DNA of 63,384 nucleotides from Kondoa subrosea (lineage: Eukaryota). Numbering within the stretch: the stretch's first letter is position 1; each line of letters begins with the position of its first letter. The stretch is taken from contig BCIN01000003.1 of the NCBI GenBank assembly GCA_039545335.1, positions 1,240,001 to 1,303,384 on the forward strand, in the 5' to 3' direction. Made by a program: the position numbers and the translations under genes. Below are positions 52,730 through 59,477 of this stretch, in pieces. The notes beneath the pieces are model-generated. The model was given only the letters and a program-made list of their open reading frames with translations. It did no database searches and had not been told where the DNA came from.

Positions 52730-53211
52730 ATGTCAGTTTGCACCGATTTTCTCGTTTTTCTCGCCCTGACGATAATGCAGGCCTCCTCCAGCACCCAAGA
52801 AGCCCGCGGGCTCCAACCCTACTGGTAAATCCAAGAAGAAGAAGTGGTCCAAGGGAAAGGTCAAGGACAAGGCCAACAACGCTGTCGTCCTCGATAAAAC
52901 CACCTACGACCGTGTAATGAAGGAAGTTCCTTCTTTCCGCATGATCTCTCAGTCAGTCACATCATCGGTCGGCATTCCCAATGTGTACTGAGTTGGATTT
53001 CTAGATCAATCCTCATCGACCGAATGAAGGTCAACGGAAGTATTGCGCGAATGATTATCAGGGAACTTGAGAAGCAGGGAGCTATCAAGCGCATTGTGCA
53101 CTCACACGCTCAGCTCGTCTACAGTAAGCTCTGTCGAATAAGCTTTGGGTTTGGGCAGCAAATGTTGATTAACTTTTCACAGCCCGGGCAAGCGCTGCTG
53201 AAGCTGCATGA
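52730..53211 (+). CDS. RPS25: 40S ribosomal protein S25 (eS25)
   Basis: [27 protein letters not shown]...[11 protein letters not shown]...HAQLVY|TRA. The start codon is AT|G across the intron at 52732-52780. Confidence 0.95.
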
Positions 53212-53991
53212 TTGGGCTCTCGTATCGATTTGCAATATCACCGGTGCATCAGACAGTCTCGACCGACATTATTTCTTTCACCGTTGTCCTGTGATCTGTT
53301 GCCGCCTGAAACTGTTCTTGCTGCAAACCTCATCCCGCTTGCCAAATTGTACGATCTAGCAGGATGGCTGTTACACTGTTTGCATCTTCAGTGCAGTACT
53401 CGATATTTGGATGCGTTTCACTGTGCTGTCTCGGTTCCGCGATTATGTTCTGCTTATTACACGATTCTGTCAATCGCTTGACGTAATGTTCTCCTGATGT
53501 CCATTGTGTTTGCATCTCCTTCACTGCTTCATTCTGTGCAATCATAAGTCGCACGGCGCTTGCGCTTTCTGCTCGGTCGGAGCGCCGATTGATACTTTGA
53601 ACTTGAAGCCGTGCAGCGCCGGGGGATAGAGAGGACCATTACAGGTCAATTACCAGCACATTGATGCGTGTCGCAGCCTAAGGAGGCCGACGGATTACAA
53701 GCAACAAGCGAGAGACGGGTCTTGGTATTGTAACTGTATTGTTACAGTGCATTCTTTGTAAAATTCTGTCGTGTAATGATAGCTTTGCATTCGTTCGCCT
53801 GAGTTCTGTACCTGCTGATATGTCTCTTGTGCGCGAGAGTATCGGACATATTGCACGTGAGTGCGCGAGGCCAATCGAAGCGTGTCGACGCGAGACAATT
53901 GCTCTTAGCACGAACCTCTCGAAAGCGCTGGGCTCTCATGCTGCTTGATCTTCATATACCTACTCCATTATCTTGATACCCTTTTGCCGCT

Positions 53992-56521
53992 GTGGCTTCT
54001 TCTCTCCTTACACGCCTTCAAGGCAGACTTGTTGTTTTCCCTCGTTCTTCTTTTGCTTCCTTCTCTACTTCTGTTCCTGCATTCAAGTTCAAGTATTATG
54101 CCCTCGCACGACCAAACAGTGGTCAGCCAAGAATAGTCGAAAGTTGGAATCAAGCCAAGCAACTGATTGAAGGTGAGCTACATCTCTCTGCCTTCTGATC
54201 TCAAAATACAAGTCTGAAATGGTATAGGCGTATCCGGTACCTTTCACAAAGGTTTCCTGACTCAAGAAGCTGCTCAAACATGGCTTAAAGCGAAAACTTC
54301 GGCAGCTACTTCGAAGAAGCGAACGAAATCGAAAGGGAAGCGATCAAAGCAAGAGTCTACAGATACATCTATAGAATATACGATACCCGGATTAGGAAGA
54401 TCTACTACTGTTGCTGAAGCATTGGTACCCGCTGAAACATCTATTGTCTTGACTCCTCAGCAGCAAGAGATACTGGATGTGGTACAGAAAGGCAAGAGCA
54501 TTTTTGTGACTGGCTCAGCTGGCAGTGGGGTGATTCATACGATTTCAAATTTGATGATGACTAATGACTCTGCAGAAATCTGTGCTGCTGCGAGAAATCA
54601 TCCTAGCCTTGAAAGCTAAATATCCTCTTCCTCAAGAGGTCGCCATCACAGCATCTACTGTGAGCTTCTTCTATGTTTCGGCTTATTTGTAAATTTGATC
54701 CTTCTTCGAAGGGAATCGCGGGATTGAACATAACCGGCCAAACTCTTCATCGCTGGGCTGGACTCGGCCTGGCTATACAACCCGCGTCCTCGCTTCTGTT
54801 TCGGCTCAAGCAGCCTACGTCTTCGGTAGCTCGAAAACGCTGGAGGAATTGCAAAGTCTTGCTCATTGACGAGATTTCTATGGTTGATGCAAATCTGCTT
54901 ACTGTAGGTTCTTCCCTGTTCCTGCGCTTCTGATGGCCAAATGAAATACGTCGTAGAAACTCGAGGCTATTGCAAGAAGCATTCGTGGATCATCGCTACC
55001 CTTTGGAGGCATACAAGGTAAAAGGTTCCAACCAGTCGTTTGGGCACAAACTGATTGCACATCAGTAATTGCGTGCGGCGACTTCTTTCAATTGCCGCCT
55101 GTTCCAGATGGAGATGCAATGGCTACACTAGCCTTTGATTCGCCTGCCTGGAAATTCGTTTTCAAGAAGATGTATAGCTTGAAAACAGTCTGTGAGTTGT
55201 TTCCAAGTCGACGAAGGTTCTTCTCATATGAGTCCAAAGTTCGTCAAGCTGATCCAGCCTTCGTGACCATCTTGAACGAAATGAGACGAGGAAACCTTTC
55301 GCCAGAATCGATCAATACTCTAAAATCGCTTGATCGACCGGTTCACTACGAAGATGGTATCGGTCCAGTCGAATTATATCCTACTCGAGCTGAAGTTAAT
55401 GCTGCAAATAATGCTCGGTTGGTACAACTTCCGGGCGAAGCTAGACATTTCGTCGCACAGGACAGATTTGGCACTTTTCTGAAGACAAACAAGACAATGA
55501 CCGAAGCAGAAAAGACCAGGGCGTTGCAACTCAAATTAAACGGCGTAAATTTTGAGCAGCCTGAACTTGGAACGGAGCTGAAGTTGCTTGCTGTAGAGCA
55601 CCATTGGACCTCGAGAAGTCACTCTTCGGGTTGGAGCCCAAGTGATGCTGTTGAAGGTATGATGAGTCCAACAAAGAGAATCTAGTAGCTGAACATCGTG
55701 ATTCAGAATCTTGCAAACAGTCAACTCTGTAACGGCTCGATCGGCCAAGTTATTGCGTTTCGAAGCACTGCAGATAACATGACAAGTCAAGGCTTTGACA
55801 AGATCATCACTCAAATTGCTCAATCTGAGAAGACGGCACGAAGCGAGAAGGAAGAAGCTCTTCGCGAACAGCAGCACAGCGATGGTCCTCCTGCAAAAAA
55901 TTCTACAGACGTAAGCACTAGTCTCTGATTATGGGATGAGGCTCAGCCTGCTTCAGTATCCTGTTGTCTACTTTCCTTCAACTCAGCAAGTCATTTGTTT
56001 CCCGCCAATGGTCTTTTCGATCGAGAACTCAGGTCGGCTTTCTATGAAACCCAAGATCTACAGCTGACAATGTAGTAGAGGGAGCAATCGAGGCAATGCG
56101 AGAGCAGATACCTTTGATGTTGGCATACGCTTTGTCGGTACATAAGTCGCAAGGCCAGACATTGGAAAGAGTGAAGGTGGGCGAAACATTCTAGCGGACT
56201 AGAAAGCTAACCATAGCATCGTTTGAATCAGGTTGATCTAGGTCGCACTTTTGAAAAGGGACAGTAGGTCACAACTACTTCCGCTTTTTGATTAGCTCTT
56301 ATTCGATTGCAGAGCATATGTCGCGCTCTCGCGTGCCACCAGTCTGGACAGGCTCGAGATCAAGCGCTTCGATGCATCTAAGGTGCTGGCTCACCCGAGA
56401 GTTACGTACGTATTGCAATTTCTTCATGGCATCTGACTGACTGTATGATAGCGAATGGTATACAAAACACTTTCCAGAAGATTATGGTAAATCAAGACAG
56501 GACAATGCTCTCGCAACCTAG
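53992..56521 (+). CDS. PIF1: Pif1-family DNA helicase with N-terminal RNase H1-like hybrid-binding domain
   Basis: [68 protein letters not shown]. 5' start uncertain (no in-frame ATG). Symbol denotes family, not proven orthology. Confidence 0.88.
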
Positions 56522-56816: not shown

Positions 56817-59477
56817 TCATGCACCATCCTCCAAAAACTTGTAATGGAACGTGCTGTATCATAATATCAGTTTTGGTTCTGCAAACTTTGTAAAAGAAGC
56901 GACATACAAAGAATTCTTCTTCCTACTAGCGAAAGCGGTTTCCCAATCAAAGTACAAACTATTATATGGTCAATTCTTCAGTCTATATACCAATAGCGAA
57001 TAAGTAAGGGATAACTCACTAAACGCCTTGCTCGTATTCTTCTGTGATTTGAGCAGGTTCGTTGGCTCTTTGAAACCATGTTAGGTATTGCTTATGGAAC
57101 CTCCATGCTCGTTTCTTTAGTTCTTCAGCAGCCAAATACCTGTTCAACATGCGCACGTCTAAGCTTCCATCAAGCACAGGGCGAAATGACACAACGAACT
57201 GTTGGTAAGTCCCGACTTGATAGTAGAAGATGTAGAAGAGCGTGTCCGTATCGAATCGACCAAACATAGCTGGTTGATCTAGAACTGCAGTAGGTGTTTG
57301 AGGATAATAATGAGGAGTAGGGTAAGGTTGTTTCGGTACGTAATACTTTGGTCTGTCAGCATTTCTTCCGCGCGTAAGATTCGTAAATCACAACCAAGAG
57401 GAACACTGACTTTTCCGAATCACTCGCTTGTGGGACATTCGAATAGCCCGATTCTAGAATCTTTGTAATGGAAGCTAAATCGCGATCTCCACTTTGAGCT
57501 GTAAGCAATCGAGTAGCTTGAGACTTGATTGCAAGAAAGTAGGAGGGTAAGAAATTTACCTTTCGATTTCGCACTCTCGAAACTGGTCACTAGATCCGTT
57601 AAGGAGTTAGGTAATCTCGCTTGTTCCGCAGCAGCTTGTTGAGCTTGTTGTTGTTGAGCTTGCTGAGCATGATTCGCAGTTCCTGCACCGCTCGCTACAC
57701 TTCCACTACTCGCTACTGAGGCTGGAGGAGGGGGTGGTGGTAAAGGAGAAGCAGCTACTTGTTGCGTTAATTCAGGAGTAGCTAAAGATTGAGATTGAGA
57801 AGAAGAAGCAGGAGGTGGTGGTGTTGCTGTCGAATGAGGTACACTAGGAGCGGGTGAAGCTGCTAATTGAGGAGGTTGAGCAATACTTGATGGTGCCAAA
57901 GAAGAAGAGACAGTGCTTAAAGCAGGTGAAGAAGTTCTACTTGGTGTAGAAGAAGAAAGTGGTGCAGCTGGGAAAGATGCGTCTTTGTTTGCTAAAGAAA
58001 TATCTCCTGGTGATGGCATTGGAGCGGATGCGCTTGCACTACTTGCTGATTGAGGAGCTGCTAGAGGTACTGTTGATCCTGCTGGTGTAACTTTCACACC
58101 TTGAGCTATTGTAGCAGAAGGAATTGGACCTAATACCGAAGCAGGCTGTTGCGATGTAGTTGGCGTAGCGTTAGATGCTGAAGTGGGCGTCGCAGATGCT
58201 GGACTAGGCTGAGGAGGTGCAGAGGAAGAAGCAGGAGGAGTAGCTACTGCCGCTGCGGCCATTGCAGAATACCTGATCGGAGGCAAAACAACAGGCTGTG
58301 AACGAGGTGTTGGCCCGGTTGCTGGTACTACTGATGAGATTGCTGAAGTCTTGGGTAGAGCTGGAACAAGCGGGGCAGAAATGATAGGTCTGACTGAACC
58401 ACCTTCCAAAGTTGGTTTTCGCCCACCAGGTCTCGTTTGCGAAGAATTGGGTATCGAAATGGAAGAAGAGCGATTTGGAGGAGGACTCTTGACGGCTTCC
58501 GGTGTTTCGTCTATTGATGCTTCTCGTGAAGGTTTCGACCCTGAAATACTCCTTGTTGGCGGTTTCATCGGAGAAGGTGATGTTTCTGAGGCATCTGCTA
58601 CTGAGTGGGAATCATGCGAAGATTGCAGGTCGTCGTTCATCATGTCAAACATCCCTTCGTCTTCCTGTAAGTTGAGATCATCGTAAATGCCTTCATCTTC
58701 CTCAAAGTCTTCTTCCTGCTCATACCTCATCAGTATCACAAGACCGCCATGGAAAGTAGACATACCTGATTGCTTTCCACAAAGTAAGCAATGTCTTCTT
58801 TCAACACATTGACAGAATCCGGTTCAAGATTCCCGTTCTCCAATAATCTCAGAATCAGTTCCAGTCTTCCGATATGCCATTTCCGCCTATCGTTGAGGGT
58901 TTCCAATTCGACTACTCTGCTCACTGCTCCACTCTTGCTACCCTTCTTCTTTACATTTCCAGCCAAAGATTCAATCTCAGCTTCAGTAACTTCGACCTGT
59001 CTACCCAATTCTTCAACCATGTTACCAGTCCAATTAGACATTTCCTGCTTGAGCTGTTCTTTAGGGTCCAACTTTGTAGCAGCATTAAGACCTTCTTTGG
59101 AGAAAGCTTTAGTCTTCATCTCTTTTTCGCATTGCTTGAATCTCTCCATTTGAGTTTCAATAAGTTTCCTCGCATCCGTTAAAGCTGATTTGTCTTTAAT
59201 TTCATTCGAAGCTAACCAAGTCTTGATTTGATCTCGAAGTCTCTGTAGTTTCTTAATTTGAGTCTTCAAGTCATTCTCCACTGTTCGACACAGCAATCCC
59301 TCCCTTTAGCACATATATCTTGCATATAACAAAGGGAAATAGGAACGCACACTTCTCTTTCTGAGGTAAATGTGTTGTAGCTTGCATCTTGTCGTGAATG
59401 CTTTCAAACAATTCAACACCCTCTTGCACGCGCTTCAGCGTTCTATCGACCTCTAAGGCCAGCTTTCTGGCTGCCAT
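56817..59477 (-). CDS. NOT3: CCR4-NOT complex subunit Not3/Not5
   Basis: MAARKLALEVDRTLKRVQEG, LKTQIKKLQRLRDQIKTW, KTKAFSKEGL, NOT-box DTLFYIFYY...WRFHKQYLTWFQR. Confidence 0.93.

Follow-up and report, generated by a model that had tools for sequence, protein, structure and literature searches.

A predicted Pif1-family helicase gene of Kondoa subrosea that encodes a diverged N-terminal hybrid-binding domain of the RNase H1 type

We analysed a stretch of 63,384 nucleotides from Kondoa subrosea (assembly GCA_039545335.1, contig BCIN01000003.1, positions 1,240,001 to 1,303,384 of the forward strand), which is referred to as a whole as the window and whose internal numbering is used throughout. 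The locus at about 53820-56521 on the plus strand is predicted to be a nuclear, intron-rich gene for a DNA helicase of the Pif1 family (superfamily 1B, SF1B) that encodes a diverged hybrid-binding domain (HBD) of the RNase H1 type at its N-terminus. After splicing, the HBD homologue, a basic linker and the Pif1 core share one reading frame. Taken as a whole, the locus is best explained as an HBD-Pif1 gene of the architecture seen in basidiomycetes, for which we infer tethering to RNA:DNA hybrids; we give this reading a probability of roughly 0.8. The identity of the small N-terminal domain as an HBD homologue (Pfam Cauli_VI, PF01693) within a Pif1 gene is very likely when judged by its sequence, while the chance that this diverged copy acts by hybrid tethering appears to be slightly below even.

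Identification of the hybrid-binding domain

The two halves of the HBD lie on separate exons. The earlier note had proposed that these exons splice at 54173-54227, and this holds: the intron has a GTGAGC donor and a TATAG acceptor, and its removal links 54172 with 54228, so that a Gly codon is completed and the frame carries on. Retention of the intron leads to an in-frame stop at 54199. Its length of 55 nt is in line with that of the other introns of the gene (43-55 nt).

The domain was scored using two profiles. The first consists of seven Pfam-verified Pif1 HBDs that were chosen by their similarity to the domain in the window. A search with exon 8 against 1.84 billion representatives gave 821 matches at E 0.001 or better, the best 150 of these were taken, and the seven were selected among them by a local phmmer search with the first 100 residues of the model. 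With this profile the spliced model obtains 31.5 bits, and 1000 shuffled sequences obtain no more than 5.1 bits. Because of the way in which these seven had been chosen, a second profile was rebuilt from other proteins. It contains 64 distinct HBD segments found via the family alignment described below, with the first set excluded and without selection by similarity to the window. The second profile matches the spliced domain end to end (profile positions 1-49) with 41.8 bits, and the first 100 residues, shuffled 1000 times, reach at most 7.0 bits. The RNase H1-type HBD pattern that had been recognized earlier is thus borne out by profile scoring.

The score depends on the junction. On their own, the exon-2 half and the exon-3 half obtain 16.2 and 15.6 bits, respectively. 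Of 12 frame-preserving GT-AG junctions tested, 54173-54227 gives the 41.8 bits and the best of the 11 others gives 17.8. In a six-frame scan of the whole window (2621 open reading frame segments) the top two profile matches are the open reading frames that flank this intron, one of which aligns to profile positions 1-28 with 13.7 bits and the other to 30-49 with 16.0 bits; the next match in the window falls to 6.0 bits.

At the level of the family, a profile of 35 HBD-Pif1 members matches the solved HBDs of RNase H1 (PDB entries 1QHK, E 2e-12; 6VRD, E 1.1e-11; 3BSU, E 4.3e-11), and the same profile matches solved Pif1 helicases at about E 1e-168. An XK-related protein (E 0.17) that came up in a PDB search with the exon pieces was discarded as spurious.

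Exon structure of the helicase gene

Scripted splicing gives a model of 15 exons and 630 codons with 14 spliceosomal introns and a TAG stop at 56519-56521. Each intron is of the GT-AG type, with a varied set of donors that includes GTCGGC and GTGGGC. Thirteen of them measure 43-55 nt and the tentative first intron measures 166 nt. Introns of only 43-55 nt in such number mark a compact, intron-dense genome of the basidiomycete type. The features of the gene are the following.

53820-53856 (+): tentative exon 1, coding; ATG at 53820, GTGAGT donor from 53857
54023-54172 (+): exon 2; possible Arg/Ser/Phe-rich extension (54023-54084), then the first half of the HBD (54085-54172)
54173-54227 (+): intron that splits the HBD; 55 nt, phase 1, GTGAGC...TATAG
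54228-54292 (+): exon 3, second half of the HBD; contains the equivalents of human F58, K59 and K60 as His, Lys and Gly and ends with the conserved Ala...Trp-Leu motif
54293-54529 (+): remainder of exon 3; Lys/Arg/Ser-rich linker, start of the helicase core and first half of Walker A
54530-54575 (+): intron within Walker A, 46 nt
54576-56521 (+): exons 4-15, Pif1 core; rest of Walker A, Walker B, Pif1 signature motif and C-terminal domains
54576-54659, 54712-54903, 54957-55017, 55066-55191 (+): exons 4-7 of the GT-AG exon table
55240-55544, 55597-55656, 55707-55910, 55957-56032 (+): exons 8-11 of the GT-AG exon table
56076-56176, 56232-56263, 56313-56405, 56452-56521 (+): exons 12-15 of the GT-AG exon table

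Walker A, Walker B and the Pif1 signature motif occur in order in the spliced model, and residues 130-615 align to Pif1 proteins with 37-46% identity. Exon 5 alone matches Pfam PIF1 (PF05970) with 32.7 bits (cutoff 25.9). Between the HBD and the helicase core lies a basic linker some 45-50 residues long. It had been stated previously that the frame stays open through this linker into Walker A, which agrees with the model: the exon at 54228-54529 is open and the motif is completed after the 46-nt intron. The Lys/Arg/Ser-rich composition of the linker suggests that it may serve as a nuclear localization signal. A Pfam match to Ssb-like_OB in the linker (19.6 bits, cutoff 24) was treated as noise.

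The exon-2 frame is open from 53977 and the exon-3 frame from 54218. Neither contains an ATG before Walker A, and a helicase start downstream of the HBD exon is therefore impossible. As exon 3 has no ATG before Walker A and a stop lies ahead of it, an upstream exon is required.

Phylogenetic placement of the gene

The model has its best full-length match in an HBD-bearing protein from Volvariella volvacea (KAF8656392.1, P0024), with 41% identity over 644 columns from the first residue of the HBD to the C-terminus. The full model is collinear with 40 or more Pif1 proteins.

A tree of 186 helicase cores was calculated with FastTree, with the HBD excluded. The window gene is found on a long branch within a clade of 21 tips (support 0.92), 18 of which are HBD-positive. 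This clade includes Cryptococcus and Kwoniella proteins, the Phaffia rhodozyma Pif1 (P0003, 710 aa) and the metagenomic proteins P0023 and P0155. The innermost grouping of the window gene with P0003 and P0023 has a support of only 0.11. The annotated N-terminus of P0003 is long, Pro/Ser-rich and without an HBD, which reflects either loss of the domain or a difference in the gene model. The fusion of an HBD to Pif1 that had been suggested from the letters of the sequence is hence upheld by the junction-specific score, by the collinearity with P0024 and by the predominance of HBD-positive proteins in the clade.

Spread of the architecture

Both Pfam domains, Cauli_VI and PIF1, were confirmed in seven relatives picked by phmmer. 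Their Cauli_VI scores are as follows.

P0024 (Volvariella volvacea KAF8656392.1): 65.1 bits
P0147: 64.9 bits
P0044: 46.3 bits
P0042: 43.5 bits
P0010: 42.6 bits
P0029: 38.2 bits
P0023: 23.5 bits

The match is partial in P0045 and partial and below threshold (18 bits) in P0036. Cauli_VI is absent from P0014, P0006, P0008, P0013 and P0021 in the Pfam scan.

The family at large was searched with an alignment of six HBD-Pif1 proteins, which gave 7871 proteins at E 1e-20 or better, and the best 120 of these were considered. PF01693 and PF05970 occur together in 79 of the 120 according to the precomputed Pfam annotation, and an HBD is present in 81 of the 120 when a local profile is used (at least 20 bits); both counts refer to a ranking that favours HBD-bearing proteins, because the query profile contained the HBD. 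A search for this domain architecture across fungi had been put forward as a check in the earlier note, and its outcome is that the architecture is not unusual. Among the matches listed, HBD-Pif1 proteins stem from the Agaricomycetes Coprinopsis cinerea (pif1, P0170), Pleurotus, Mycena, Phanerochaete, Volvariella and Serendipita and, in the Tremellomycetes, from Cryptococcus neoformans (P0245) and C. gattii ('ATP-dependent DNA helicase PIF1') and many Kwoniella. Cauli_VI and PIF1 are also both carried by a protein of Puccinia striiformis (P0266). By its annotated sequences, the combination is widespread in Basidiomycota and, among the matches listed, it is the usual form of Pif1 in basidiomycetes. 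The nearest named proteins without an HBD, again among the matches listed, are the ascomycete Pif1 proteins of Pneumocystis, Trichoderma, Orbilia and Ophiocordyceps.

Among the 88 HBD-bearing relatives that are at least 450 aa long, there are 77 in which the local profile match starts within the first nine residues. Of the HBD-negative proteins among the 120, 36 entered the alignment, and 20 of these have fewer than 85 residues before Walker A; such short proteins may stem from truncated gene models or be paralogues that lack the domain. In P0023, which comes from a metagenome contig, both domains lie within a single uninterrupted open reading frame. Several Logan contigs encode complete HBD-Pif1 proteins of 606-672 aa. 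Since these contigs are only 2.0-2.4 kb long they leave no room for introns, and they probably represent transcripts. Both findings indicate that the HBD and the helicase are read in a single frame in relatives.

A word-index search with exon 3 gave no matches, and with exon 8 it gave only the HBD-free Phaffia Pif1. A metagenome scan produced one distant locus (L001, 41% identity), of which the N-terminal part is cut off.

Some relatives are of double length, namely P0006 and P0159 from Ceratobasidium (1152-1165 aa) and P0262 from Phellinidium (1169 aa). P0006 has two full Pif1 cores in a single protein, and P0262 has SH3-type domains added to HBD-Pif1. Merging of gene models or tandem duplication probably accounts for these proteins. 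Several Pif1 paralogues per species, with or without an HBD and sometimes on the same contig, are seen in Phanerochaete sordida, Abortiporus biennis, Mycena sanguinolenta and Volvariella volvacea. Such mixed sets suggest that the genes were duplicated locally and that the HBD was kept in some copies and not in others.

As the precomputed annotation of many public proteins lists PF01693 together with PF05970, this kind of protein is known to databases. It is seemingly unstudied: no paper describing an HBD-Pif1 fusion was found in the library searched, where the literature retrieved on Pif1, HBDs and RNase H1 was judged by titles and the beginnings of abstracts. The one paper in which PF01693 and helicase occur together deals with genes captured by Helitrons (PMC4289320). 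The window gene is apparently a new, diverged member of this recorded domain pair.

Divergence of the HBD in the window

Residues were mapped through an alignment of P0024 with 3BSU combined with the profile alignment, and family counts were taken from the 64 members of the second profile. In human RNase H1 the binding surface of the HBD is reported to consist of W43, K59 and K60; the W43A mutation abolishes hybrid binding and K59A/K60A lowers the affinity about tenfold (PMC6846478). The corresponding positions and the other conserved residues compare as follows.

Equivalents of human Y29, W43, K59 and F61: kept in the window copy
Conserved Ala (64/64) and Trp (59/64) near the end of the domain: kept in the window copy
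Equivalent of human F58: His in the window; His in 34/64 family members
Equivalent of human K60: Gly in the window; Ser or Gly in 59/64 family members
Family Gly (64/64): Pro in the window
Family Arg (61/64): Asn in the window
Family Tyr (61/64): Val in the window

The conserved Phe of the family is retained as well. From its residues, the domain in the window is a clear homologue whose competence for binding hybrids is uncertain.

Start of the gene and neighbouring genes

For the first exon, every combination of ATG, donor and acceptor that keeps the frame was enumerated. The segment 53820-53856, which joins the acceptor before 54023, is the sole enumerated first exon with a consensus GTGAGT donor. 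An alternative first exon of three codons (53820-53828) joined to 54088 would give a start that resembles that of most relatives. We tentatively prefer the ATG at 53820 with the acceptor before 54023 from among at least two reasonable first-exon models, and the HBD is kept under both of these. The pyrimidine-rich stretch 53977-54087 (+) is open in the frame of the HBD, contains no ATG and offers in-frame acceptors before 54023, 54027, 54088 and 54094. It could encode an Arg/Ser/Phe-rich N-terminal extension or could be the 3' part of the first intron. To judge by composition, a mitochondrial presequence may precede the HBD.

Upstream lies an exon of the gene for ribosomal protein S25 at 52898-53356 (+), which matches Pfam Ribosomal_S25 with 48 bits. 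Its position just upstream leaves about 0.5 kb for the promoter and first exon of the Pif1 gene. On the other side a convergent gene at 57022-58823 (-) encodes a NOT2/3/5 C-terminal domain (87.3 bits), which is preceded by a Ser/Pro/Ala-rich open frame of 467 codons with no Pfam match. This neighbour is probably a Not3/Not5-type subunit of the CCR4-NOT complex.

Proposed mechanism and significance

The HBD of RNase H1 confers processivity on that enzyme. By analogy with what the HBD does for the catalytic domain of RNase H1, the HBD of an HBD-Pif1 protein could dock on an RNA:DNA duplex, while the helicase would load on the adjacent single-stranded DNA and move 5' to 3'. In this way the enzyme would be kept on hybrids, for instance R-loops, Okazaki or mitochondrial primers, or duplexes of telomerase RNA with the telomere. 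Tethering would raise its local concentration and its persistence on a substrate that Pif1 already unwinds well; robust unwinding of RNA/DNA hybrids is reported for yeast Pif1 (PMC6144861).

The earlier note went further and suggested a dedicated role in targeting R-loops or primers. For the protein of the window such a role stays conjectural, in a copy that has lost three near-invariant residues and the K60 equivalent. A broader and rather speculative scenario is that Basidiomycota gave the cellular Pif1 the hybrid sensor of RNase H1 and so obtained a hybrid-tethered unwinding enzyme that works beside or instead of RNase H1 at R-loops, primers or telomerase-telomere duplexes, and that this sensor was remodelled in the lineage of the window. 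Remodelling (loss of the Gly and Arg, Tyr to Val, Gly at the K60 equivalent) may have shifted its specificity.

RNA:DNA hybrids as well as G-quadruplexes are cleared by Pif1 helicases. An entire phylum of fungi seems to have settled the recruitment of Pif1 to its substrates by attaching the HBD of RNase H1, and HBD-Pif1 proteins therefore constitute a natural test of whether hybrid tethering suffices to direct the activity of Pif1. For the window alone the result is ordinary, as it adds one more diverged member to an architecture recorded in databases.

Weighing of alternative explanations

A number of observations speak against an HBD-Pif1 gene with hybrid tethering. The Pfam Cauli_VI model, with which only the separate pieces were scored, remains below its gathering score of 21 bits: the first half alone obtains 16.5 bits (E 0.01, positions 1-24 of 44; 15.8 bits in another run) and the second half alone is not reported. 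In a PDB search the exon pieces alone match none of the solved HBDs. The 54172/54228 junction and the start codon are deduced from homology and splice-site logic. The HBD is not universal in the clade, P0003 being without the domain. At three near-invariant positions the window copy has Pro for Gly, Asn for Arg and Val for Tyr; it further has Gly in the place of K60 and His in that of F58, and such a degenerate copy may bind hybrids less well or in an altered manner. Furthermore, the literature searched yielded no experimental work on an HBD-Pif1 protein.

These substitutions, the long branch of the window gene and the absence of the domain from P0003 could mean that the domain is a true HBD homologue that no longer binds hybrids in this lineage and is kept as a relic or for another role, such as binding of double-stranded RNA, a protein contact or folding of the N-terminus. 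P0003 belongs to the same clade, so the domain can be lost. We consider this outcome less likely than not, because the frame is intact, the match spans the domain end to end, and the W43 and K59 equivalents are retained together with the conserved Phe, Ala and Trp. Moreover, His or Phe at the F58 position and Ser or Gly at the K60 position are usual across the family, and those two changes are thus not special to the copy in the window. A much less probable alternative places the HBD-like exon outside the helicase mRNA, as a separate small gene or a skipped exon, with the fusion an artefact of the gene model. The junction is indeed predicted from the sequence, the start codon is uncertain with several possible first-exon models, and the pyrimidine-rich stretch 53977-54087 would remain open through its composition alone. 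This alternative is countered by the need for an exon upstream of exon 3, which has no ATG before Walker A and a stop ahead of it, by the fact that 54173-54227 alone among 12 junctions restores the full domain, by the fit of this 55-nt intron to the range of 43-55 nt in the gene, and by relatives in which a single protein has both domains, for one of them within an uninterrupted genomic open reading frame.

An origin from a Helitron, in which a Pif1-like transposon helicase rather than the cellular Pif1 would have captured Cauli_VI, has to be considered since basidiomycetes contain many RepHel helicases and a Pleurotus Helitron with a captured PF01693 gene has been described (PMC4289320). We regard it as highly improbable. 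The N-terminus is taken up by the HBD and the linker, which leaves no space for a Rep (Helitron_like_N) domain, and the gene has 14 short spliceosomal introns and sits between the RPS25 gene and the NOT2/3/5 gene. The family profile matches solved cellular Pif1 at about E 1e-168, compared with 3e-34 for Helraiser. A Pfam scan of the exon pieces gave no Helitron domain, and no Helitron feature was found at the locus. The PF01693 gene of the Pleurotus element is captured separately and not fused to the helicase (PMC4289320). Finally, a domain of only about 50 residues, whose first half scores below the Pfam threshold and whose halves miss the solved HBDs directly, could resemble an HBD by chance. 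This has a negligible probability and was rejected: the spliced domain obtains 41.8 bits compared with at most 7.0 in 1000 shuffles, its halves are the top two of 2621 open reading frame segments in the window and are adjacent, ordered and complementary in profile coordinates, and orthologous proteins have the domain at the equivalent place.

Comparison with known systems

The window gene shares its order of parts with the basidiomycete proteins that combine Cauli_VI and PIF1, that is, an N-terminal HBD, a variable linker and the Pif1 core. About 163 residues precede the Lys of Walker A, compared with a median of 151.5 in the basidiomycete HBD-Pif1 family. The window gene differs from this family in its more diverged HBD, with Pro, Asn and Val in place of Gly, Arg and Tyr, and in about 33 extra residues of uncertain identity that the model has upstream of the HBD.

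The HBDs of RNase H1 (human, 3BSU and 6VRD; yeast, 1QHK) are homologous at the level of the family, and the domain of P0024 alone gives E 2.4e-7. In RNase H1 the HBD is joined to the RNase H catalytic domain, whereas in the window it is joined to a helicase.

With Saccharomyces cerevisiae Pif1 (5O6B and 8XAK) and human PIF1 (5FHH and 6HPH) the window gene has in common the SF1B core with Walker A, Walker B and the Pif1 signature; the family profile matches the solved yeast and human proteins at E 1e-168 and 1e-131. The solved chains begin at the helicase core, and these proteins are not reported to contain an HBD. At its N-terminus human PIF1 carries a PINT domain, whereas that of yeast Pif1 is long and disordered.

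In a Helitron of Pleurotus ostreatus a PF01693 domain, that of the gene capE, is likewise found next to a Pif1-like helicase (PMC4289320). There capE is a separate gene captured in a transposon (PMC4289320), whereas the HBD of the window is predicted to be an exon of a cellular Pif1 orthologue.

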